Shown here: in pieces, positions 40,277 to 56,743 of the stretch
How the letters are laid out: each line of letters begins with the position of its first letter
Position numbering within the stretch: position 1 is the stretch's first letter
DNA from: an uncultured bacterium
GTDB lineage: Bacteria; Krumholzibacteriota; Krumholzibacteriia; Krumholzibacteriales; Krumholzibacteriaceae
Direction of reading: 5' to 3'
Assembly (NCBI GenBank): GCA_963813815.1
Contig: CAWFAD010000010.1
Coordinates: forward strand, 148,654-212,653
DNA length: 64,000 nt
Position numbers and translations under genes: made by a program
The notes under the pieces: model-generated
Seen by the model: only the letters and a program-made list of their open reading frames with translations
What the model was told of the DNA's origin: nothing
Databases searched by the model: none

Positions 40277-42244
40277 CTATCTCAGCAAGACGAGTTTCTT
40301 GGTGAGCGATCTCTTTCCCGCCGTGAGCCGATAGAAGTAGATCCCCGCTGCGGCGGGCTCTCCCCGCGCATCCCTGCCGTCCCACGGCACAGCATGAACG
40401 CCCTCTTCCTCGATGCCGTCGAGGAGGCACGCGATCTCCCTCCCCGCGCAGTCGTAGACGGCGAGCCTCACGCGAGAGCGCTCCGGAAGCTCGAATCGGA
40501 TTGTCGTCCCCGGGTTGAACGGATTCGGATAGTTCTGCGCGAGGGATAGCGCGAGAGGCGGGAGCGAGACGGGCTCGCTCTCGAAGAGAACGCTTCGCTC
40601 TCCCGCCCGCTCGACGTCGACCCGGTACCGATAGGCGACCCCCCTCAGGCAGGTCTCGTCGAAGAAGGCGAAGGACAGGCCGTCTCTTTGCAGCCCCGCC
40701 GCGGGCAGCTCCTCGTACCCGCCACCCTCGGGGGCGCGCAGCACGATGAAGGCCGCGTCGTCATCGATCTCCGACAGCCGCCATTCGACGACGATGCGCG
40801 AGCTTTCCGCTCGGGCGCAGAAGCTCTGGAGAAGAGTCGCCACGGTCTCGCCGTTCGCCGTGACCCGCATGGCGTAGACCGCGCCGATCGTGTCCTGCCG
40901 CAGATCGCGCCACGTGAGGATCGCCCCGCCTTCCCCGTTCGAGGTCATCTGGGGATAGTATTGCCCGTCGGGCGCGTCGCACACCACAACCGCCGTCTCC
41001 GTCCACAGCAGGATGCCGTCGGGATCGACCCTCTGGGCGAAAATGTCATAGTAGGTAGGGGTTCCCCATCCCCAGCACCAGCAGATAATGGCTCCCCCGG
41101 CTCCGTCCTGGACCAACTCGGGATGGGTATAAGAAGCAAATCCAATCGGTGGGTTGAGATGGATGGGGACGCCGTTCGCCACCCAGAGCAGGTCTCCGGT
41201 TCCACTCATGCGCTGCGCATAGATATCGCTGCAGCTGTCCCGCTGATCGCACCATGCTATGAAGGCGCCTCCGGCGCCGTCGAGTATCATTCCGATATCA
41301 GTCTGATCGAGCGCGGCTATGCAGATCGGCACGTCCCCGCGCGACAAGATGGCGCCTGTCGAATCAATTCGCTGAGCGAATATGTTCCGATAGCCGTCAT
41401 TCCCGCTGTTCCAGGCAATGAAGGCCCCTCCGCAGTTATCCTCAATGCAGACCACTTCCCACTTCGTGACGCTGGTGCCCGAGACGCGCACCCCGTCCGT
41501 CGCCCACAGCTTGTTTCCGCTCCCATCGATGCGCTGGGCATAAACGAAGGAATACACGAGGCTGTAGCGGTTATCCTCCCAGGCGATGATGACGCCCCCG
41601 GCTCCATCCGTGGTCGCTCGAGGCTTATTCTGCCACCACACGGTGGGGCATACGGGGATGCCGTTCACCGCCCACAGGGCCTTGCCGTCGCCATCGAGCT
41701 TTTGGCAATAGATCTGCCCCACGCCGCTTCGATCATCCCGCCAAGCGATGATGAAGTTGCCATGGCCGTCTGGAACGGTGACGGGCATATATTGCCCGTA
41801 TCTCTCCGTAACGACCGGCACGCCGTCCGGCGTCCACTGCACCTCGCCGGCGGCGTTGACCCGCTGCGCATATATGTGAAAAGTGCCGCTCCGCTCATCG
41901 CGCCAAGATATGATGGCCCCGCCTTCGCCGTCCGCGACTATTTGCGGGTCCATTTGCCGCCCGGGAGCTGTGCAGATAGGGACTCCATTGGAGGACCATA
42001 GGAGATTTCCATCTCGATCAATGCGCTGGCAGAATATATCCATGTAAGTGCTTCCCACTGGATATTCATCCCATGTGATAAATGCCCCGCCGGCTCCGTC
42101 GCTCGCAATGTAGGCGTACCACTGGTCTCCCAGCGAGGGGCACACCGGCACGCCGTCCTCGATCCAATCCGCTCGCAGAGCCGGAGAGGCAATAAGCGAG
42201 ACCAGCATGACAATCAGGGCAACACGGCATTTTAGCGATGCCAT
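40277..42244 (-). CDS. Secreted repeat (probable beta-propeller) protein with C-terminal FlgD-Ig/T9SS-type domain
   Basis: Signal peptide; eight ~60-aa repeats; LAQNYPNPFNP.T.I.F..VYD..GR..WDGRD..G..A.GIYFYRL..KKLVLLR. Confidence 0.85.
   Translation of the reverse strand: MASLKCRVALIVMLVSLIASPALRADWIEDGVPVCPSLGDQWYAYIASDGAGGAFITWDEYPVGSTYMDIFCQRIDRDGNLLWSSNGVPICTAPGRQMDPQIVADGEGGAIISWRDERSGTFHIYAQRVNAAGEVQWTPDGVPVVTERYGQYMPVTVPDGHGNFIIAWRDDRSGVGQIYCQKLDGDGKALWAVNGIPVCPTVWWQNKPRATTDGAGGVIIAWEDNRYSLVYSFVYAQRIDGSGNKLWATDGVRVSGTSVTKWEVVCIEDNCGGAFIAWNSGNDGYRNIFAQRIDSTGAILSRGDVPICIAALDQTDIGMILDGAGGAFIAWCDQRDSCSDIYAQRMSGTGDLLWVANGVPIHLNPPIGFASYTHPELVQDGAGGAIICWCWGWGTPTYYDIFAQRVDPDGILLWTETAVVVCDAPDGQYYPQMTSNGEGGAILTWRDLRQDTIGAVYAMRVTANGETVATLLQSFCARAESSRIVVEWRLSEIDDDAAFIVLRAPEGGGYEELPAAGLQRDGLSFAFFDETCLRGVAYRYRVDVERAGERSVLFESEPVSLPPLALSLAQNYPNPFNPGTTIRFELPERSRVRLAVYDCAGREIACLLDGIEEEGVHAVPWDGRDARGEPAAAGIYFYRLTAGKRSLTKKLVLLR
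40860..42160 (-). repeat. Eight degenerate protein-level tandem repeats (DGxGGAhIxWxDxR...IYAQRxxxxGxxLWxxxGVPxC)
   Basis: Units begin DGAGGAFITW, DGEGGAIISW, DGHGNFIIAW, DGAGGVIIAW, DNCGGAFIAW, DGAGGAFIAW, DGAGGAIICW, NGEGGAILTW; bounds approximate. Confidence 0.85.
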
Positions 42245-42424
42245 GGGGCTTGGTACTCCGCAGATTCGAGCCTTCGTGTTCATGGGTGAAACAGTATGAC
42301 CGCTCCTATAAGCATAGCCCATTTTGGAGTTGTTTTGTGCGAATTTGCGACCTCCTCGGCAAAACCTGGAATCTCGCTGAAACGGTCAACCGAGATCGTG
42401 ATTTGGCACAGGAGGAATGGGTCC

Positions 42425-42453
42425 TTGACGCCGCGGCAGGGGCGGCGTAAAAT
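42425..42453 (+). promoter_or_regulatory. sigma70-type promoter
   Basis: TTGACG, 17 bp, TAAAAT upstream of ATG 42506. Confidence 0.6.
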
Positions 42454-42505
42454 GCGTACGTATAATCAATCTACATTTTGGGAATCCGGCGCGAAGGTTT
42501 ACGGC

Positions 42506-43432
42506 ATGCGACTCTTTATGCTTGCCGTCATGTTTTCGCTTCTCTATGCGTCCGACGCGTACTCCCGAACATGGTACGTTCGAACAGACGGAACCGGGGA
42601 TGCCCCGACGATTCAGGCCGCTCTCGACAGCGCGCAGGCCGGCGACACGGTCCTCGTGGGATCCGGGACACACGAAGTTGAATACATGCTTCTTTGCAGC
42701 AGCAATAATGATCTGACGATACTGGGGGAAGAGCCGGAGGGATCGGCGACAATAAGCGGGATAACAGATCAGAGCCTGTTTATGGTTGAATGCTCCTCAG
42801 ACATTTTAATAAGGGGAATGACGTTTTCGAATTGTCCCCTTATTTTGAATGGGAGTGGTCCCACAATTATAGCGCACAACATTTTTTACAATAATTCTTC
42901 TATCATAGTAGAGGCAAGCGGTTCGAGTGAAATATTCAACAATCTCATTTATTCCTGCGGAGCCGGAATAAGCTGCGGCGACTATGCAATGGACATTAAG
43001 ATACACCACAATGTCATCGCCTTCAACGTTGGCACCTCGGGCCCAGGTGATGGAACAGGCATTTTGCTCGACGCCGGAAGCTATTGGATTAGCAACAACA
43101 TTATTGTCAATAATCGGCAGGGCATACGGAGCATTTCAACGACCGTGCATCTCGACTGCAACAATGTGTGGGGGAATGCGGAATTCAACTACAGCCTGCT
43201 GTTTTTCCCGGATCCGACGGGAACGAACGGCAATATTTCTCTGGACCCGCAGTTTTGCGGTGTGAGCCCGGATATCTCGGGCAATTTCTATCTGCAATCC
43301 GATTCGCCCTGCGCCCCCGGGAACCATCCGGACGGCTTCGGCTGCGGTCTCATCGGCAGGTACCCGGTCGGTTGCGAGACCGTATCCACGGAGCGAACGA
43401 GTTGGGGCGAAATAAAGGCAATGTTCAAGTAA
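42506..43432 (+). CDS. Secreted right-handed parallel beta-helix (pectin lyase-like) protein with C-terminal SWGxIK motif
   Basis: Signal peptide; TIQAALDSA..GDTVLV..G; Asn-rich I.NNII..N repeats; GNIS.DPQFC..LQSDSPC; ends VSTERTSWGEIKAMFK. Confidence 0.85.
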   Translation: MRLFMLAVMFSLLYASDAYSRTWYVRTDGTGDAPTIQAALDSAQAGDTVLVGSGTHEVEYMLLCSSNNDLTILGEEPEGSATISGITDQSLFMVECSSDILIRGMTFSNCPLILNGSGPTIIAHNIFYNNSSIIVEASGSSEIFNNLIYSCGAGISCGDYAMDIKIHHNVIAFNVGTSGPGDGTGILLDAGSYWISNNIIVNNRQGIRSISTTVHLDCNNVWGNAEFNYSLLFFPDPTGTNGNISLDPQFCGVSPDISGNFYLQSDSPCAPGNHPDGFGCGLIGRYPVGCETVSTERTSWGEIKAMFK

Positions 43433-43461
43433 ATGGATGGAAGGTCAAGGACCTCGCCAGT

Positions 43462-44691
43462 TCAGCGGAGCAGCACGAGCTTTCTCGAGAACACTTCCTT
43501 GCCGACGGCGAGCCTGCAGTAATACACCCCGGAGGGCAAGCTGGCGCGGCTCGCGGCCATGGGGTTCCACCGGAAAATGTGATGTCCGGCCTCGCGCGCG
43601 CCGAGTTCGTACCGGTCGACGAGGCGTCCGGCCGCGTCGTAGAAGGAGATCGTCGCGGGCTTTCCCGCGCCGGCGGCGCTCACGGTGTAGGGAATCACCG
43701 TCGAGGGGTTGAACGGGTTCGGATAGTTCTGTCCGAGGAAGGCGGCGGCCGCGGCTCCCTCGACGAAGATCGGCCCGTAGCGCGATGGGTCGTCGTCGGC
43801 GATCTCGACGAGGTAGTAGTAGAGATTCCGGGTGGGGTCGTCGCAGGGATCGAGGAACTCGTACGTTCCGCTCGCGGAGACGGGCGCGAGGTTGCGTTTC
43901 ACGGCCGCGAGAAACTCGGGCTCGTACCCGCGATACACGTCGAACGAGACGGACCCGGAGCAATCCATCGTGCACCAGCTGATCGCCACGCCCCCCTCGA
44001 CGCGCCGGCACTCGGCGGAGGAGATGAGAACGCCGACGAGCGGCGTGAGAGAGATCGGGATGTTCTTCGTTTCGTCCGGCTCGAGGTGGATATCCGTGAT
44101 GACGGTATCGCGGTATCCGGGAGCGTGGGCCGACAGAATGTAGACCGACGAGCAGAGGTTGTCGAACCAGTATGAGGCGCCGCTCCACGAGGAGAAGGTG
44201 CCGATGACGTTGTACAGGGAATCGAAGAGAATCACGGTCGTGCCGTCCGGGACGCCGCTCGATCCGTCGGCGGTCACGGTGCCCGTGATGATTCCCGTCG
44301 GCTGCTCTATCCGGTAAGTATAATCCGAGTCGTTGAAGTAGAAGTAGTGATAGCCGCTATCGGGAAGCATCGCCACGATGCTCGGGGGGTTCCACGCGAG
44401 ATCGGCGACTCCCCACACGCCGCTCCATCCCCAGTGAAGGGGCAGATACGAGCCGTTCATGGTGAATTTGAAGAAAACGGTATCAGGGCTTCCCGGCTGG
44501 TCGACGAAAACGAGTTTTCGCCAGAGGTGCTCATCGAGGAGCTGCATGTTGTTCACGGGATCGTCCGGCTCGCAGGTGATGCCGTCGAAATTGCCCACGA
44601 GCTGTACGGAAACGGGCTCCTGTGAACGGGAAGGGCCAGCGAACGGCAGCAAGAGGATACCTGCGAGAATCGCTGCGCCGATACGCGTCAT
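43462..44691 (-). CDS. Secreted multi-domain protein (CBM-like plus carboxypeptidase-regulatory-like) with C-terminal FlgD-Ig/T9SS-type domain
   Basis: Signal peptide; LVGNF..FFKF..W segment; GIITGTV..Y.LSAHAPGY; LGQNYPNPFNPST...SGVYYCRL..RKLVLLR. Confidence 0.8.
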   Translation of the reverse strand: MTRIGAAILAGILLLPFAGPSRSQEPVSVQLVGNFDGITCEPDDPVNNMQLLDEHLWRKLVFVDQPGSPDTVFFKFTMNGSYLPLHWGWSGVWGVADLAWNPPSIVAMLPDSGYHYFYFNDSDYTYRIEQPTGIITGTVTADGSSGVPDGTTVILFDSLYNVIGTFSSWSGASYWFDNLCSSVYILSAHAPGYRDTVITDIHLEPDETKNIPISLTPLVGVLISSAECRRVEGGVAISWCTMDCSGSVSFDVYRGYEPEFLAAVKRNLAPVSASGTYEFLDPCDDPTRNLYYYLVEIADDDPSRYGPIFVEGAAAAAFLGQNYPNPFNPSTVIPYTVSAAGAGKPATISFYDAAGRLVDRYELGAREAGHHIFRWNPMAASRASLPSGVYYCRLAVGKEVFSRKLVLLR

Positions 44692-44950
44692 ACCAACTGC
44701 TCCATCCCTTTCGGTGTCCGGCTTCGATGTTTCGGCTCGCTCGACGCGTAATTGCGTATTTACTACCTAATTATAGCTCGTCGCGGCCGCCGAGTCAAAT
44801 CCGTGCCGGTTCCGGATGCCCATTCAACGGCTTGCACCGACTCATTTTACTGCAAGTACCGTACCACGGCCGGGCCAAAGGCATGCTTTTTGCGGATGCC
44901 CCCGGGGCATGCTGCGGCTTTGAGACGACTGCCGGGGTGAGCAGACGGCC

Positions 44951-45496
44951 ATGGGTATCAGAATCTCTGCAATCTATAATAGAGGCAAAGAGTTCATCGC
45001 CGTGGATCAGGCCGTGAAGGCCCACAGCGAGACCTTCGAGTCGGAGGAGCTCTTTCGCAGGGCCGAGGCGCTCGTGCAGAAGCGCAACTACGAGAAAGCG
45101 GAAAGCCTTCTCGTCGAGGCTCTCAAGATCGTTCCCGAGAACGCCCAGTACCTGTCGTACTACGGCCTGTGCGTCGCCATGCTCGGCGGCCGCGAAAAGG
45201 GGGACACGATCTGCACCAAGGCGTTCAGGCTCGATCCCACCAGCCCGGTCATCTGCGTGAATCTCGGCCGGGTCAAGCTCGAGCTCGGCCTCCGGAAGGA
45301 CGCTCACGAGCTCTTTTCGCGCGGATATGACCTCGACTACTCCCAGTCGGCCGCGGCGCTCGAGCTTTCGGGCATGGGCGTGCGCCGGCCGCCCGTCATC
45401 CCCTTTCTCCCGCGCCGCCACCAGCTCAACATCTTTCTCGGAAGGCTGCGCCATAGGATCCTCGGTTTCAAACAGCCCGGCTGGAAAAAGCTCTAG
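44951..45496 (+). CDS. TPR-repeat protein (start uncertain)
   Basis: TPR-like helices; C-terminal MGVRRPPVIPFLPR.H.LN..LG. Confidence 0.75.
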   Translation: MGIRISAIYNRGKEFIAVDQAVKAHSETFESEELFRRAEALVQKRNYEKAESLLVEALKIVPENAQYLSYYGLCVAMLGGREKGDTICTKAFRLDPTSPVICVNLGRVKLELGLRKDAHELFSRGYDLDYSQSAAALELSGMGVRRPPVIPFLPRRHQLNIFLGRLRHRILGFKQPGWKKL

Positions 45497-45530
45497 AACG
45501 GTCATCCCGACAAGCTCTACAATGGTTGGC

Positions 45531-46700
45531 ATGCGAACGTGTCGGAACGTTTCCGTCGCTCCGTGTCTTCTCGCCCTCGCGCTTCTCGGCTCCTCCTGCG
45601 GTGGGGGACGGCTCGAGGACGCGGTGGGGGAATGGAGCGAGGGGCGCGCGCTGCAAGACCGGCGTCTCGTCGCGTTTCTCGAGCGGAGCGATTTTCATGG
45701 GGCGCTCGCGCTCGCGGACAGCGTGATCGAAACGGGAGAGCGGAGCTCGCGCATCCTCACGCAGCGCGCCCGCGCCCTCGGCGGGCTCGGCAGGAACGCC
45801 GAGGCCGTGGCCGATTTCGAGGAGGCCGTCCTCGGCGATTACGAGAGCTGCGAGAGCCATCTCGAGTTCGCGATCTACCTCATGCGCGCGGGAAAGACGG
45901 GGCGCGCGCATACCGAGTTCATGGAGGCGAAGACGTTCTGCGACGAGCGGCACTTGCCGGTCATCTACCGGAATCTCGCGGTGGCGGGGATCAAGCTCGA
46001 CCGGCTCGCCGATGCGGGGCGATACGTGGCCGACGGGCTCGCGGTCGCGCCGGGAGATTCGTATCTCCTCGGCCTCAAGGGGATGCTCGTCGCCCGGGAG
46101 AATCCGCTCGAAGCGGAAAGCCTTTTCGCGAGGGCGCTCGGGGCGGGCGAGGTCTCGGACGAGATACTCGTCCCGTACGCCCTCCTCCTCCTGAACGGAG
46201 GGAACGCGCCGAAGGCGGTCTCCGTCCTCGAAAAGGCCGCCTCGGCCGCTCCCGACAGTCGCGAGATCCGGGAGTATCTCGCCGAGGCGCTCGACCGGTC
46301 CGGGCGGCCGCGCGAGGCGGAGCCGATCCTGCGCGGGCTCCTTGCCGAGCGGGACGAGCCCGAGGCGCGGAGCGCGCTCGCGAGGGCCCTGTTTCACGCC
46401 GGAGAGCTCGCCGCCGCGCTCGAGATATACCGGGGGCTCGATGAGACGCCCGAGACCATGGACCGCATCGCCATGTGCCTCCACGGTCTCGGCCGCCTCG
46501 ACGAGGCGCTTCCGTGGGCGAGGCGGGCGATCGCCGCGAGGCCGGATTGGCCGCAGGGCATGATCAATCTCGCGGTCATACTGGCGGCGAGGGGGGAGAT
46601 CGAGGAGGCGGTGGGGCTCCTCGAACGCGCGGTCTCGCTCGATCCGTCGAACGAAGCCGCGGCCTCGAATCTGGAGCGGCTTCGGGCGGCGCGGCGGTGA
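45531..46700 (+). CDS. TPR-repeat lipoprotein
   Basis: Lipobox LGSSC followed by many TPR units. Confidence 0.8.
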   Translation: MRTCRNVSVAPCLLALALLGSSCGGGRLEDAVGEWSEGRALQDRRLVAFLERSDFHGALALADSVIETGERSSRILTQRARALGGLGRNAEAVADFEEAVLGDYESCESHLEFAIYLMRAGKTGRAHTEFMEAKTFCDERHLPVIYRNLAVAGIKLDRLADAGRYVADGLAVAPGDSYLLGLKGMLVARENPLEAESLFARALGAGEVSDEILVPYALLLLNGGNAPKAVSVLEKAASAAPDSREIREYLAEALDRSGRPREAEPILRGLLAERDEPEARSALARALFHAGELAAALEIYRGLDETPETMDRIAMCLHGLGRLDEALPWARRAIAARPDWPQGMINLAVILAARGEIEEAVGLLERAVSLDPSNEAAASNLERLRAARR

Positions 46701-46820
46701 GACGCGAAAAAAGGTGCTGACGCGCCCTCCATTTTTCTATAGAATATCGCCGGGTGAGGAAACAAACCTCCAATGGAATCGTAATAACGATTGAAGATTC
46801 CAAGACCGGAGGTAGATGAA

Positions 46821-47252
46821 ATGTACTGCAAATACTGCGGCAAAGAGATCGGCGACAGCGTCGAATTCTGCACCTACTGCGGCAAGCGGATCGTCGAGGC
46901 TCCGGGAAGCGATCGGGGCATCTACCGGCACGAGTTCCTGAGGCTTCGCGCTCCGCGGGAGGCCAAGAACCCGAAAGCCGCCGCCGCTCTCGGATTTTTT
47001 CTCAGCTGGATCTTTTTCGGCCCCGTCGGCTACATCTACCTCGGGCAGTGGAACTGGTTCTGGCTCACCTTCATCATCCAGATCTTCGCGTACCCGCTGA
47101 CCGCCTTTTTCGCGTATCCGCTGCTTCCCATCGTGTTCGGCATCCATCAGTACCAGATGGCCCGGGACCTGAACGAGCTCGTCGTCCCGCGGACGGAAGA
47201 GTCGGCGAACGCTCCCGGCGAGAGCCGGTACGATTCCATCGAACGTCCCTAG
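46821..47252 (+). CDS. Zinc-ribbon membrane protein (TM2-like)
   Basis: MYCKYCGKEI...FCTYCG; KNPKAAAAL..G.GYIYLGQ; TM helices; SD GGAGG. Confidence 0.8.
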   Translation: MYCKYCGKEIGDSVEFCTYCGKRIVEAPGSDRGIYRHEFLRLRAPREAKNPKAAAALGFFLSWIFFGPVGYIYLGQWNWFWLTFIIQIFAYPLTAFFAYPLLPIVFGIHQYQMARDLNELVVPRTEESANAPGESRYDSIERP

Positions 47253-47282
47253 ATCCGGCGCCCGGCCCGGAAAAGGATCCTC

Positions 47283-48230
47283 GTGGACCGAAACCTCGCG
47301 CTCGAGCTCGTGAGAGTGACCGAGGCCGCCGCCCTCGCTTCCGCGCGTTTTTTCGGCAAAGGGGATCCGCTGAGCGCCGATCGGGCGGCCGTGGAGGCGA
47401 TGGAGCTCGCCTTCGCCGGAGTCAAAATCACCGGACATATCGTGATCGGCGAGGAGCGCCTCGGGGAGCAATCGAGGCTCTGCGCCGGCGACCGGGTCGG
47501 AGCGGGGGGCGACGTCGAGCTCGATCTGGCGATGGATCCGGTCGATTGCATCGAGGCGCTCGCGAACGGCCAGGCGAACTCGATTTCGGCGATCGCCATG
47601 GCCACGAGCGGGTCGTTTCTCGCGCCTCCCGCGCCCTTTATCCGCATGATCGCGACGGGAGGGGAGGCGGCGGACGGCGTCGATCTCGGCGCGTCGGTCT
47701 TCGCCAACCTCGTGCGCATAGCGGAGGCGAAACGGGTCTACGTGGAGGATCTCACCGTCTCGATCATCGACCGGGAGGCTCACCGGCCCCTCGTCGAGGA
47801 GGTGCGGGCCGCGGGCGCCCGCATCGAGCTTCTCCGGGACGGCGAGCTCGCCGGCGCTCTTTCGGCCGCTCTTCCCGGCACCGGCATCGACGTGTCGATC
47901 GGCACCGGCGAGGCCAAACGGGGGATCATCGCGGCGGCGGCGCTCGCCTGCATCGGAGCGGGTTTTCAGGCGCAGTTCATTCCCGCGCCGGACGCCGACC
48001 CCGGGACGCTCGCGGAGGAGCACGCGAAGATATATCGCGCGCGGGACATCGTCGGGGGCGGAAGCGTGATGTTCGCCGCGACCGGTGTGTCGAACAGCGA
48101 TTTTCTCGAGGGCGTCATGTTCCGGCCCGGCGGCGCCGTCACGCACAGCGTCGTGTTCCGGAGCAAGTCGGGCACGATCCGGTTCCTCAAGACCGAGCAT
48201 TTCTTCGAAAAGGCCCCCGATTACACCTGA
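47283..48230 (+). CDS. GlpX-like (class II fructose-1,6-bisphosphatase fold) protein with altered catalytic motifs
   Basis: MDRNLALELVRVTEAAAL, AD.AAV.AM, VIGE, FAATGV, THSVV.RSKSGTIRF; DPVDCI in place of DP(L/I)(E/D)GT. Confidence 0.8.
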   Translation: MDRNLALELVRVTEAAALASARFFGKGDPLSADRAAVEAMELAFAGVKITGHIVIGEERLGEQSRLCAGDRVGAGGDVELDLAMDPVDCIEALANGQANSISAIAMATSGSFLAPPAPFIRMIATGGEAADGVDLGASVFANLVRIAEAKRVYVEDLTVSIIDREAHRPLVEEVRAAGARIELLRDGELAGALSAALPGTGIDVSIGTGEAKRGIIAAAALACIGAGFQAQFIPAPDADPGTLAEEHAKIYRARDIVGGGSVMFAATGVSNSDFLEGVMFRPGGAVTHSVVFRSKSGTIRFLKTEHFFEKAPDYT

Positions 48231-48247
48231 TCCCGCAGGAGCGCCCC

Positions 48248-49576
48248 ATGCCCGATCTGTTCGAGAGCAACGTCGCGCCGCCGCTCGCCGAGCGGATGCG
48301 TCCGCGCACGATCGAGGAGTTCGTCGGACAGGGGGATCTCGTCGGCGAGGGGAGGATACTCCGCCGCATCCTCGAGCGCGGAAAGCTCGACTCCTCGCTC
48401 ATCTTCTGGGGTCCGCCCGGCTGCGGCAAGACGACGCTCGCGCACCTCATATCGCAGGCGGTGGACGCGCATTTCGAGTTCTTCTCCGCCGTCACCGCCG
48501 GCATTCAGGACGTGAAGCGCGTCGCCGCCGAGGCCGCGAACCGCTCGCGGCTGCGGGGGCGACGCACGATTCTCTTCGTGGACGAGATACACCGCTTCAA
48601 CAAGGCGCAGCAGGACGCCTTTCTTCCGTTCATCGAGAACGGCACGATAGCCCTCATCGGCGCGACCACGGAGAACCCGAGCTTCGAGGTGATAGCGCCG
48701 CTTCTTTCGCGCTGCCGTGTTTTCATTCTGAAGCCGCTCGGCGAGGAGGAGATCGCTTCGGTGATACGCCGCGCGCTCTCCGACGCCTCGGCCGGGCTCG
48801 GCGCGAGGAGGATCGCCGTGGCGGACGACGACGTCCGGTATCTCGCGCATCTGTCCTCGGGCGACGCCCGGACCGCGCTCAACATTCTCGAGCTCGCCGT
48901 CGAGTCGACCGCGGAGTCGGGCGGCGCCGTCGGCCTCTCTCGCTCCTCTCTCGAGGAGGCCGCGCAGAAGAAGGCGATTCTCTACGACAAGAAGGGAGAG
49001 GAGCACTACAACATCATCTCGGCGCTGCACAAGAGCCTTCGCGGGGGCGACGCGGACGCGGCGCTCTACTGGCTCGCCCGCATGCTCGAGGCCGGGGAAG
49101 ACCCGCTCTTCGTGGCGCGCCGGCTCGTCAGGTTCGCGTCGGAGGACATCGGAAACGCCGACCCGCAGGCGCTCTCCGTCGCGCTCGCCGCGATGCAGGC
49201 CTTTCATTTCATCGGGCTTCCCGAGGGGAAGCTCGCTCTGGCCCAGTGCGCCGTCTACCTCGCCCTCGCCCCGAAGAGCAACGCGCTCTACACGGCATAT
49301 GACGCCGCGGCGCGCGACGTCGCAGAGCATGGGGCGCTTCCCGTGCCCCTCGATATCAGGAACCCCGTGACGCGCTTCATGAAGAACGTCGGGTACGGAA
49401 GGGACTACCGCTATCCGCATGAGGACCCGGACGCCGTCGTCGGTCAGGAGTATTTTCCGCATGAGCTCGCGGGGCGCCGCTACTACGTTCCCGTCGAGCG
49501 CGGCTTCGAACGGGAGATGAAAAAGCGCCTCGAGTACTGGCGATCCCTCCGCGAGAAGAAAAAGGACGACGGCTGA
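48248..49576 (+). CDS. rarA: Replication-associated recombination protein A (MgsA)
   Basis: PLAERMRP, GPPGCGKTT, DEIHRFNKAQQD, ATTENPSF, ISALHKSLRG, ASEDIG.ADP. Confidence 0.96.
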   Translation: MPDLFESNVAPPLAERMRPRTIEEFVGQGDLVGEGRILRRILERGKLDSSLIFWGPPGCGKTTLAHLISQAVDAHFEFFSAVTAGIQDVKRVAAEAANRSRLRGRRTILFVDEIHRFNKAQQDAFLPFIENGTIALIGATTENPSFEVIAPLLSRCRVFILKPLGEEEIASVIRRALSDASAGLGARRIAVADDDVRYLAHLSSGDARTALNILELAVESTAESGGAVGLSRSSLEEAAQKKAILYDKKGEEHYNIISALHKSLRGGDADAALYWLARMLEAGEDPLFVARRLVRFASEDIGNADPQALSVALAAMQAFHFIGLPEGKLALAQCAVYLALAPKSNALYTAYDAAARDVAEHGALPVPLDIRNPVTRFMKNVGYGRDYRYPHEDPDAVVGQEYFPHELAGRRYYVPVERGFEREMKKRLEYWRSLREKKKDDG

Positions 49577-49706
49577 GACCCCGGAGAGCTCTATACCGGC
49601 GAGGCGAATGGTCGCCCCGGTCCCTCACTGCATCGCCCACCATTCTCCTTCAAACGCCTTAACTAATGGCCGGATAACGCATTGCGCTCATTCCGCATGA
49701 GTTCGC

Positions 49707-49735
49707 TTGACGAAATTGTTGCGATATGTCATAAT
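49707..49735 (+). promoter_or_regulatory. sigma70-type promoter
   Basis: TTGACG, 17 bp, TGtCATAAT in an AT-rich intergenic stretch. Confidence 0.6.
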
Positions 49736-49798
49736 TATCAGCAAGTTAAGAAATTTAACGACGAGCTTTTTGTGCTGCATGTGGAGGTTAACGGTAAC

Positions 49799-50782
49799 AT
49801 GAAAAAGGCCGCTATAGCTTTTATTGCGTTTTCAGCGCTCATGACGGGACTCAGCGCTTCTCTCGGCGCGCAGTGCCAGCCCGTTCTGGCCCTCGCGTCG
49901 AGCGCCTCGGGATCGGCGTACTACGTGAGGATGGCCGTTCATTTCGGCGAGGTGTACTCGGTTCCGAACGACATCATATGCTCACGGAGCCTGATAGAGG
50001 GCGAGAACGTCGTCAGCGTCCCCGTCTGGATCTATAACCTTCATCAGGGGATCGACTACGTCGAGTTCTCGGTCGCGTCGAACGAGAGCCTCGGCGTCTT
50101 TATCCCCGACAACTCCTTCGCGATCGTCTCGAGCGTCTCGTCGCGCACGGAGGAAGGATACCGGATCGACCTCATCATGGAAACGCCCACCGCCGTCTGC
50201 GGAAGCGCCAGGCTCGGTTACGCCGAAGTCCATCGCGTCAACGGATGCGATCCGGTGTGGATCGATCTCGGGCCGAACGCGATCACGGGCCGGATGATCG
50301 CCCGCGACGCGAGCGGCGAGCTGCACTACGTCTTTTCGCCCCAGCACGGGGGATACCTCGGCCAGGAATATCTCTACGCCTGCCAGGAGCCGATCTGCGA
50401 GGAGCCGAACATGACGGCCACCTGCTTCGAGGTCGTACCCGACGTCAATTGCCGGGTCAGACTTCGCTGGAACGCCGGCAGCGGCAATTGCTCGATGATC
50501 CGGTGGAGCACGAACCGCTACCCGACGAGCATCGCGGACGGGGAGCTCGCCGTTGAGATCCCCACGAGCCAGGGGCAGATCTACGACGTCTCCGTTTATC
50601 ACGAGGAGCTTTCGGCGACGACGCCGCTCTACTACACAGTGTTTTCGATCACGCGCGATCCCTCCGGTCTCATCGTCCGCGATTCCTTCGTCGAGTGCGT
50701 CGCTCTCGGCTATACGTACATGAGGTGTCCGGTCGCGACCGAGGAAACGAGCTGGGGAACGATCAAGAGCCTCTACCGGTAG
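49799..50782 (+). CDS. Secreted Cys-rich hypothetical protein (FnIII-like C-terminal part) with C-terminal SWGxIK motif
   Basis: Signal peptide MKKAAIAFIAFSAL; V.L.W..YPTSIADG..YY.VFS; ends VATEETSWGTIKSLYR. Confidence 0.8.
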   Translation: MKKAAIAFIAFSALMTGLSASLGAQCQPVLALASSASGSAYYVRMAVHFGEVYSVPNDIICSRSLIEGENVVSVPVWIYNLHQGIDYVEFSVASNESLGVFIPDNSFAIVSSVSSRTEEGYRIDLIMETPTAVCGSARLGYAEVHRVNGCDPVWIDLGPNAITGRMIARDASGELHYVFSPQHGGYLGQEYLYACQEPICEEPNMTATCFEVVPDVNCRVRLRWNAGSGNCSMIRWSTNRYPTSIADGELAVEIPTSQGQIYDVSVYHEELSATTPLYYTVFSITRDPSGLIVRDSFVECVALGYTYMRCPVATEETSWGTIKSLYR

Positions 50783-54367: not shown

Positions 54368-55486
54368 ATGAGCACGCCTCGGATAAAGCCGCAGCTTTCA
54401 GAAAACACTCTGCGAGTGCTTGAAAAGCGATATCTGCGCAAGGATATCGACGGGAACGTCACCGAATCCCCCGAGGAGCTGTTCCAGCGGGTCGCATCCA
54501 ACGTTTCGTCCGCCGAGCGGCTGTACGGCAAGGCGGAGAAATGCCGGCTCTGGAACGACGAGTACTACGACATGATGGCCTCCCTCGATTTTCTGCCGAA
54601 CTCTCCGACTCTCATGAACGCGGGCGCGGAGCTGCAGCAGCTCTCCGCCTGCTTCGTGCTGCCGATCGACGACTCGATGGAGAGCATCTTCGAGACGATC
54701 AAGCACACGGCGCTCATCCACAAGAGCGGGGGCGGCACGGGATTCTCCTTCTCGCGCATCCGGCCCCGCAACGACGTCGTCAAAACGACCAAGGGAATCT
54801 CGAGCGGCCCCATTTCCTTCATGACGGTGTTCGACGCGGCGACCGAGACGGTCAAGCAGGGAGGCACGCGCCGCGGCGCCAACATGGCGATCCTGCGCGT
54901 CGACCATCCCGATATCCTCGATTTCATCTCGGCGAAACGCGAGAACAACCGGCTCAACAACTTCAACATCTCGGTCGGCGTCACCGAGGAGTTCATGAAG
55001 GCGGTCAGGGAGAACGGCGATTACGCCCTCACCAACCCGCACGGCGGCGAGATCGTCGACCGCATCAGCGCGCGCAAGGTGTACGAGATGATCATCGAGT
55101 TCGCGTGGAAGAACGGCGAACCGGGGATCGTTTTCCTCGACCGGATCAACCGCTTCAATCCGACGCCGAACGTCGGCGAGATCGAGAGCACGAATCCCTG
55201 CGGCGAACAGCCGCTGCTGCCCTACGAGTCGTGCAACCTCGGCTCGATCAACCTTTCGCACATGATCGACCGGTCGGGTCCCAAACCCGCGATCGATTTC
55301 AAGAAGCTCGGCGCCATCGTTCAGAAAGCGATCCGCTTCCTCGACGACGTCATCGACATGAACCGGTATCCGCTCGAGAAGATCCGCGAGATGACGCTGA
55401 AGAACCGGAAAATCGGGCTCGGCGTCATGGGATTCGCCGACATGCTCATCTCCCTCGAGATCCCGTACAACTCGACCGAGGCGCTG
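54368..55486 (+). CDS. nrdJ: Class II (B12-dependent) ribonucleotide reductase, 5' part only; cut at the apparent chimeric junction
   Basis: [55 protein letters not shown]; homology ends at PYNSTEAL. Confidence 0.88.
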
Positions 55487-55490
55487 CGCT
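55481..55490. other. Probable chimeric junction between two genomes or reads
   Basis: Abrupt end of nrdJ; shift in codon style; indel density jumps downstream. Confidence 0.8.
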
Positions 55491-55575
55491 GGAGCGGCTC
55501 GCGGGGTAGGCGATCGTGTAGAGGACTCTCACGGTCGCCCTTGCCCGGGCGCCGTCGGGCCGGATCGTGGATCGC

Positions 55576-56743
55576 ATGGCCCTCGTCACCACCATCCGCT
55601 CGCTCCTGGTCTCCGCCGTGGTCCTGCTCGTGCCGGCCACCGCCGCCGTGGCCGCCCCGGCCGACGACGCCGCCGGCCCCGACGCCGGCGCCCTGATCAT
55701 CGGCGGCGCACCCGTGGGCGATGGCTCATGGCCCTCGATCGCCGCGCTCGTCCCGGCCGGCGGCGCGCCGAGCTCAGCACCTTCTGCGGCGGCACGCTGA
55801 TCGCCCCGACGGTGGTCCTGACCGCCGCGCACTGCGTCCTCGAGGCCTCCGGCTCCTCGAAGCCCGCCGGCGCGGTCGAGGCGCTCCTCGGCACGGAGGA
55901 CCTGACGGCTGCCCGCCGAGCGCATCGCGGTCGCCGAGATCCGCGTCCACCCCGGCTACCGCGTGGAGGGCGACGCCCCCGACGCGGCACTGCTGGTGCT
56001 GGCCCGCCCCTCCGCCGCGCCGGTCGCCGCCTACGCCGCGGCCGCGGCCCAGGACCGCGACGCCGAGCGAGCGGGCGCCATCGCGGGCTGGGGCGAGGAG
56101 GGCGACGGCACCGCCGTCTACCCGACGCGCCTGATCGCGCCCGCGTCACGATCTTCAGCGCGGCCCGTTGCCGGGAGATGCTCGGCTCCGCGTTCCACGT
56201 CGGCGGCGCGCTCTGCGCCGGCCGCCCCGAGGGCGGGGCCGACACCTGCGCGGGCGACAGCGGCGGCCCCCTCCGCGACGACGCCGGCCTCGTCGTCGGC
56301 ATCACCAGCTGGGGCGTCGGCTGCGGCCGTCCCGGCCTGCCGGGCGTCTACACGCGCGTCGCCTCGGTCTCCGGGTGGATCGCGAAGGCCATGGCGGCAC
56401 CGGCCGGCTCGGCGCAGGCCGCCGCGCCGGCCCGCGCCCCCGGGTCCGCGCGCTCGCGGCCCACGGCCGCCGGGGCGCGACCGCCCGCCTGCGCTACCGG
56501 CTCGCCGGCCGCGGCGAGAGCACCCGCGAGGCCATCTCGATCCGCGTGGGCCGCCGGGTGATCGCCCGCATCCGCACCGACGCCGGCCCCGCCCACGCCG
56601 ACGTGGAGTATTCGGTCTCCTGGCGCATCCCGCGCCGGCTGGCGGCCTCCTCCCGCCTGAGCTTCTGCGTGGCGACCCGGGTCGTGGCCGGCCCCGGCGG
56701 CGGCGCCCCCTCGTGTGCGCCGCTTCGGCTCATCCGGGGCTGA
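55576..56743 (+). CDS. Secreted trypsin-like (S1) serine protease, multiple frameshifts
   Basis: [50 protein letters not shown] spread over several frames. Confidence 0.85.

Follow-up and report, generated by a model that had tools for sequence, protein, structure and literature searches.

A short C-terminal tag on unrelated secreted proteins of Krumholzibacteriota as a candidate protein-sorting signal

The window considered here is the whole stretch of 64,000 nucleotides that was analyzed, a part of contig C10 in the 2.53 Mb assembly (90.8% complete) of an uncultured bacterium of the Krumholzibacteriota. Two secreted proteins encoded in it end in the same tag of about 16 residues, centered on the motif WGxIK. 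This tag, which likely directs small exported proteins as a miniature, membrane-free sorting signal, occupies the position where homologs carry the type A C-terminal domain (CTD) that belongs to type IX secretion systems (T9SS). The genes and features concerned, together with two neighbors that represent the contrasting, CTD-bearing class, are the following (window positions).

42506..43432, + strand: right-handed beta-helix protein, secreted and tagged; 308 aa, with a Sec-type signal peptide and NosD/DUF1565 matches
43382..43432, + strand: C-terminal WGxIK tag VSTERTSWGEIKAMFK and stop codon, the end of the beta-helix protein
49799..50782, + strand: Cys-rich protein of no known family, secreted and tagged; 327 aa, with a signal peptide; family searches gave no match
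50732..50782, + strand: C-terminal WGxIK tag VATEETSWGTIKSLYR and stop codon, the end of the Cys-rich protein
40277..42322, - strand: untagged representative of the contrast class; 681 aa, secreted, with a T9SS type A/FlgD-Ig CTD; TIGR04183 at 33.1 bits (cut-off 23)
43462..44691, - strand: untagged representative of the contrast class; 409 aa, secreted, with a T9SS type A/FlgD-Ig CTD; TIGR04183 at 30.6 bits (cut-off 23)

Translation of 43382-43432 and 50732-50782 returned both tails where the earlier note had read them. Its claim that the two carriers are unrelated also holds: with the tags removed, no similarity between the beta-helix and Cys-rich proteins was found (best BLASTP E=22). The beta-helix protein has a tagged paralog on contig C6, 80% identical to it. 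Named homologs come mostly from Candidatus Krumholzibacteriota, in keeping with the phylum given above. A patch of low GC content (52-61%) at 41000-45000 spans the beta-helix gene and its CTD-bearing neighbors, which suggests recent acquisition of this gene region.

Within the assembly, the pattern [ST]WGx[ILVMF]K has 23 six-frame matches, 22 of them no more than six residues from a stop codon. A position-specific scoring matrix seeded on those 22 tags retrieves 24 open reading frames (ORFs) at 29-62 bits, the next match scoring 8.8. These ORFs form 11 BLAST groups, one being a frameshift fragment of the largest family, leaving about ten families. Signal peptides, already reported for the two window proteins, were scored by a script heuristic rather than a dedicated predictor: a signal-like N-terminus is present in 22 of the 24 tagged ORFs and in 225 of 803 controls whose starts were picked in the same way. 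In the remaining two (one mis-picked start, one frameshifted gene) a signal start is visible by eye. The tagged proteins are small, at 135-327 aa when the fragment and one mis-started ORF are left out, against a median near 770 aa for the type A CTD proteins of this genome (crude gene calls), and they are rich in Cys (3.2% vs 1.1%). The Cys seen just upstream of both window tags recurs in 17 of the 24 ORFs, but it does not belong to the tag itself. Taken as an envelope-targeting tag of some kind, the element is very probably real.

The consensus of 329 tags is [VTI][PAGS][TV]Exx[ST][WF]Gx[IV]KxL[YF]R, with an invariant Lys, a near-invariant W/F-G pair and fixed spacing, although this conservation is partly imposed by the selecting pattern. 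In two AlphaFold models the tag appears as a short, low-confidence helix behind a loose linker, detached from the domain. The last 25 residues hold no transmembrane stretch (best 19-residue hydropathy 0.97), in agreement with the earlier reading. The description of the tag as a short amphipathic helix fares less uniformly, since a helix is indeed predicted, at low confidence, but its hydrophobic moment is modest (mean 0.33). A helical, basic and aromatic tail of this kind could tether proteins straight to the membrane with no protein reader, as do the tails of MinD and PBP5, which are membrane-tethering amphipathic helices. Such a role is very unlikely for the tag. The helix has only about nine residues and that modest moment, whereas the invariant Lys, the W/F-G pair and the fixed spacing point to stereospecific recognition, and tethering would leave the conserved gene neighborhoods described below unexplained.

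The tag has no match in Pfam, NCBIfam or the PDB (a profile search of PDB sequences gave 0), and an ESM Atlas search with the tag region gave no usable match. The type A CTD models TIGR04183 and PF18962 do not match the tagged proteins. No curated model identifies the tag as a characterized sorting domain, in keeping with the earlier note.

The range of the tag extends over three phyla. The strict pattern, applied to DNA, occurs in all 131 Krumholzibacteriota genomes at 1-68 copies each, with a reversed-pattern control giving zero in 128 of the 131. It also occurs in 74 of 81 Eisenbacteria genomes and in 9 of 9 genomes of a third phylum. Six of the seven pattern-blank Eisenbacteria carry variant tags, and the seventh has one profile match, which was not inspected. 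Extrapolation from 3 of 64 parts puts the number of tag stretches in GTDB at about 2600; the search for a cultured carrier found none. Of the 150 best among 417 library matches, 149 have the motif and 145 have its Trp 9-15 residues from the end, and two of the four non-terminal cases also hold a variant terminal copy. Both in the genome (22 of 23) and among these motif-bearing matches (145 of 149), the motif is therefore C-terminal rather than internal.

One tagged protein, which bears a lamin-tail domain (LTD), is near-universal and nearly always single-copy (124 of 131 genomes), and it is tagged in 8 of 20 tag-poor Eisenbacteria. It is likely a core envelope component. The copy in this genome (contig C12:8400-9044) contains an invariant acidic RDWxGD loop, and a fold search with the LTD-tag model gave no match at E<=0.001. 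In Eisenbacteria, not in this genome, ATP-binding cassette (ABC) genes that look like a generic sugar/nucleoside importer adjoin the LTD-tag gene.

The same domains can carry either the tag or another anchor. The tag pattern closes 114 of 120 homologs of the beta-helix protein, variants of it close four more, and one homolog is partial; the set is biased toward tagged relatives because the query contained the tag. In homolog P0100, the same junction is followed by a type A CTD instead. The tag is absent from all 65 longer homologs, most of which have a type A CTD or a dockerin at their end. A cohesin-like domain is found in this genome with the tag (eight intact genes and one frameshifted), with a type A CTD (one gene) and on untagged lipoproteins (two). 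None of the tagged proteins has a CTD match, and the two signals alternate on the same domain.

Several components of a type IX-like route accompany the tag. SprA is present in 131 of 131 genomes of the phylum and in 5 of 5 further genomes. PorU, tested in this genome only, scores 543 bits against a cut-off of 420 and adjoins a PorV-family gene. This genome encodes seven PorV-family barrels, six of which adjoin CTD-bearing genes. An orphan PorV2-like barrel (contig C5:17260-18309), single-copy in 120 of 131 genomes, adjoins glgC-like and sigma54-regulator genes. GldM was not found in this genome, with control genomes giving no match either; GldK, GldL and GldN were not searched. On contig C13 (6-15776), a porU-porV-M6 protease-CTD cluster is followed by genes for two small unknown proteins, an NHL-repeat protein, a protein of 1132 aa that matches SprA weakly, and a protein of Omp85 type. 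These may be further type IX-like parts.

Exosortase was considered as a general reader and rejected. This genome does have an exosortase gene at a distance of 1.5 kb from one tagged gene, and the element E..[ST]W loosely resembles PEPxxWA, the PEP-CTERM motif, so the tag might be read as a PEP-CTERM remnant processed by exosortase. This explanation is hardly credible and is largely refuted by the phylogenetic profile. Exosortase occurs in 58 of 131 genomes as against 131 of 131 for the tag, and in family f6 in 1 of 54 genomes, yet all 54 are tagged. Moreover, the exosortase adjoins a PEP-CTERM substrate of its own, and the tag has no transmembrane helix.

The best candidate is a second PorU-like peptidase of family C25, whose gene on contig C9 directly follows two tagged genes. 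It scores 163 bits against NF033707 (PorU sortase), below the 420-bit cut-off, is 24% identical to PorU, and has a C25 domain, a His/Cys dyad and a CTD of its own. In 62 aligned peptidase rows the catalytic His is present in 57 and the Cys in 56, the rest being gaps. A quick tree places the tag-linked paralog apart from PorU proper, and an ESM Atlas search with the peptidase returned C25/PorU clusters only, with little taxonomy. PorU itself is described in PMC10202324 as a Cys/His sortase-like enzyme. The paralog, mostly single-copy, is found in 121 of 131 Krumholzibacteriota, 75 of 81 Eisenbacteria and 9 of 9 third-phylum genomes. It is present in none of three outside genomes with one pattern match each, which, given these features, are probably stray contigs or chance.

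Gene order was compared at 60 loci from 59 of the 121 genomes, hand-picked for long contigs and family spread. Tagged genes on the same strand lie upstream of the peptidase in 51 loci, the nearest usually less than 350 bp away, whereas 20 control loci around SprA gave one chance non-tag match and no true tag. The nine missing loci comprise two with variant tags, one without upstream sequence, one second copy, three from family f5 and two that are unexplained. The order dockerin-like gene, tagged gene, peptidase is conserved; a look-up of RNA runs for this trio listed none. The first member, detected with a profile seeded from 29 sequences of the same loci, is present at 50 of 60 loci, at 0 of 20 SprA controls and at 7 of 20 Eisenbacteria loci. 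It is single in this genome and precedes the tagged genes in most loci; its product is dockerin-like by motif only, with no Pfam dockerin match. In Eisenbacteria, a tag on the same strand lies 3.6-18.3 kb upstream of the catalytic-region match in 20 of 20 loci (taken from 75), a comparison in which other genes often intervene and which has no matched control in that phylum. At several of these loci, the genes that separate the tagged ones from the peptidase read as phosphodiesterase-like, glycosyltransferase, epimerase, aminotransferase and small flippase-like, and they possibly hint at a glycan or lipid acceptor. In at least five of the nine third-phylum genomes, the peptidase match is preceded by a tag at about 2.15 kb upstream, which corresponds to the start of the gene, the tags in some genomes being drawn from the best 150 candidates.

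The syntenic tagged family is predicted with high confidence (predicted local distance difference test, pLDDT, 91.7) to adopt the cohesin jelly-roll fold. Its model aligns with 2vo8 over 119 residues (VIA Z 12.8, root-mean-square deviation 2.2), and every one of the 15 Foldseek matches listed at E<=0.001 is a cohesin or a cohesin complex; Gram-positive pilin domains reach Z 8-9. The tagged cohesin-like gene beside the peptidase at contig C9:18776-19300 is frameshifted, by sequencing error or as a pseudogene. Of 42 Eisenbacteria neighbors, none matches the cohesin-family profile.

These observations suggest a route in five steps. The proteins carry N-terminal signal peptides and would first be exported by Sec. 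The tag would then be presented as a short predicted helix, W/F-G-x-I/V-K-x-L-Y/F, with its invariant Lys behind a loose linker. The outer membrane would be crossed through SprA, possibly with a barrel of the PorV family, for example the orphan PorV2-like one, as relay, as co-occurrence suggests. The PorU paralog, encoded behind a dockerin-like gene and one to seven tagged cohesin-fold genes, could next cut the tag and transpeptidate, the cut tag being replaced by a cell-surface anchor; gene order and the His/Cys dyad are observed, and from them catalysis on the tag is proposed. Finally, small Cys-rich domains would be displayed on the surface, and cohesins among them would dock dockerin-bearing partners. 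Processing of the tag by the PorU paralog is about as probable as not, and the same even odds apply to the fuller claim, preferred to the other explanations considered here, of tag cleavage and surface anchoring of the cargo by a second PorU-like C25 enzyme acting as a dedicated sortase. A further, quite improbable extension would be a second, independent outer-surface sortase pathway in which the paralog cross-links tagged cohesin-fold subunits and other domains into a covalent scaffold or fiber, with the tag Lys as a possible acyl acceptor. The view of the tag as a candidate protein-sorting signal, put forward in the earlier note, is supported. The uncharacterized machinery postulated there is probably less unknown than assumed, given SprA in 131 of 131 genomes and the syntenic PorU-like peptidase.

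A number of points weigh against processing by the paralog. The syntenic tagged proteins are nearly all of one kind (127 of the 131 clustered belong to one cohesin-like superfamily), and one of two large Eisenbacteria clusters is a remote relative of that superfamily (hhalign 74%, E 2.7e-5); the synteny may therefore tie the peptidase to the cohesin family and not to the tag. Most tagged genes, including both window genes, lie far from the peptidase, the three family-f5 loci have no synteny though their genomes carry tags, and the quick tree gives no firm grouping of the tag-linked peptidases as one clade across phyla. The presence of SprA is uninformative, since 39 type A CTD matches already explain it. 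The N-terminal half of the tag is no closer to the type A CTD linkers of the genome than shuffled sequences are (p=0.41), and only 26 of 329 tags have the PorU-type pair [TEDN][GAS] where it would be expected. In addition, the comparison set includes no T9SS-bearing, tag-less lineage as a negative control, and the sampled genomes are kin, so the counts overstate independence.

The predominance of one syntenic family also favors another explanation, in which the tag is a minimal T9SS signal for ordinary PorV and PorU, and the trio is a cohesin-dockerin-peptidase complex whose cohesin is tagged by chance. The swaps with the type A CTD and the presence of PorU-PorV and SprA agree with it. For a type A CTD, PMC10202324 reports that its last 22 residues are enough for secretion and that conserved Lys residues are important. 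However, the tag is a predicted helix as opposed to the beta-strand end of type A CTDs, it matches no CTD model, and similarity of the linkers is not supported. One Eisenbacteria cluster upstream of the paralog is, furthermore, not detectably related to the cohesin family. On balance, the explanation is rather improbable.

The arrangement of some copies raises another objection. Tags occur in tandem (four in P0190, two each in P0266 and P0312), often on lipoproteins, directly behind the signal peptide (P0275), and after each duplicated domain (P0232, P0255 and P0276). The claim of a strictly C-terminal position therefore holds for most copies, as in 22 of 23 in this genome, but not for all. 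P0190, P0266, P0275 and P0312 belong to one lipoprotein family, which in some genomes bears between one and four tags; at contig C16:121604-122642 of this genome, two lipoproteins of similar appearance have no tag (judged by eye, a phmmer check giving no rows). Tandem, N-terminal and internal tags suit a non-cleaved docking or binding motif, whose W-G-x-I-K-x-L-Y helix would bind a surface receptor or scaffold non-covalently. Possible partners are the orphan PorV2-like barrel, the dockerin-like protein and, in the role of a platform, the C25 protein. The lack of a conserved cleavage pair, the detachment of the tag from the domain in both models and the single-copy state of the orphan barrel in most genomes are consistent with docking. 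Nevertheless, multiple or internal arrangements are rare (about seven among the best 150 of 417), and the syntenic C25 peptidase retains its catalytic dyad, so that docking is considered unlikely.

Two contig ends require caution. Between 55600 and 64000 in the window, GC content rises from about 65% to 71-80%, the ribonucleotide reductase ORF (54368-55696) continues into unrelated sequence, and the genes past 55600 (protease, HU, rpmI) look foreign; this is probably a chimeric contig end. Contig C6:7800-15700, with broken, foreign-looking ORFs, is a possible second one.

If processing by the PorU paralog is correct, the 16-residue tag would represent a new class of bacterial sorting signal that lacks both a membrane anchor and a folded domain, has a sortase-like enzyme of its own and is almost universal in three uncultured phyla. 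Outside Bacteroidota, type IX-like machinery would then operate two addressing systems in parallel, thousands of hypothetical proteins could receive a surface-protein annotation, and protein display would gain a very short tag as a candidate. The named enzyme-substrate pair allows an in vitro test without a cultured host. Neither the tag nor the gene trio was found described in the open-access literature, supplements not covered; the tag is real and undescribed in the searchable literature.

Among known systems, the T9SS type A CTD (TIGR04183/PF18962; here FlgD-Ig-like) is comparable in many respects. Like the tag, it is an extreme C-terminal signal on Sec-exported proteins of the same genomes, is interchangeable with it on the same domains, has a C25 Cys/His enzyme implicated, and has a conserved Lys near its end. 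In contrast, the tag has about 16 residues compared with about 75 (an Ig-like domain of 70-80 residues), much as the earlier note had stressed. It is a helix instead of an Ig sandwich, has no profile match and no shared linker motif, is linked to a second PorU paralog, and sits on the far smaller cargo given above.

The tripartite sorting signals form a second group, which in bioRxiv 10.1101/2023.06.07.544157 includes LPXTG/sortase, PEP-CTERM/exosortase, MYXO-CTERM and WGxxGxxG-CTERM; the comparison literature also includes PMC11285876. The tag shares with such signals (LPXTG, PEP-CTERM, MYXO, GlyGly) a short motif present in many copies per genome on unrelated exported proteins, with a putative processing enzyme encoded beside some substrates. 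It differs in having neither a transmembrane helix nor an Arg/basic cluster, and in that exosortase does not co-occur with it.

The gene trio, in turn, resembles the ScaE-type anchoring scaffoldin of Ruminococcus flavefaciens (PDB 2zf9), in which a single cohesin-fold domain is joined to a C-terminal signal. ScaE is anchored by sortase, and sortase-assembled pilus operons are known; with both systems the trio has in common a dockerin-like neighbor and an adjacent transpeptidase-like gene. The trio differs in belonging to a diderm cell, in having a C25 enzyme and not a class A/C sortase, in its different signal, and in a dockerin-like protein that lacks a Pfam dockerin match. The tag thus resembles T9SS CTDs and sortase signals in the way it works, but it belongs to neither class.

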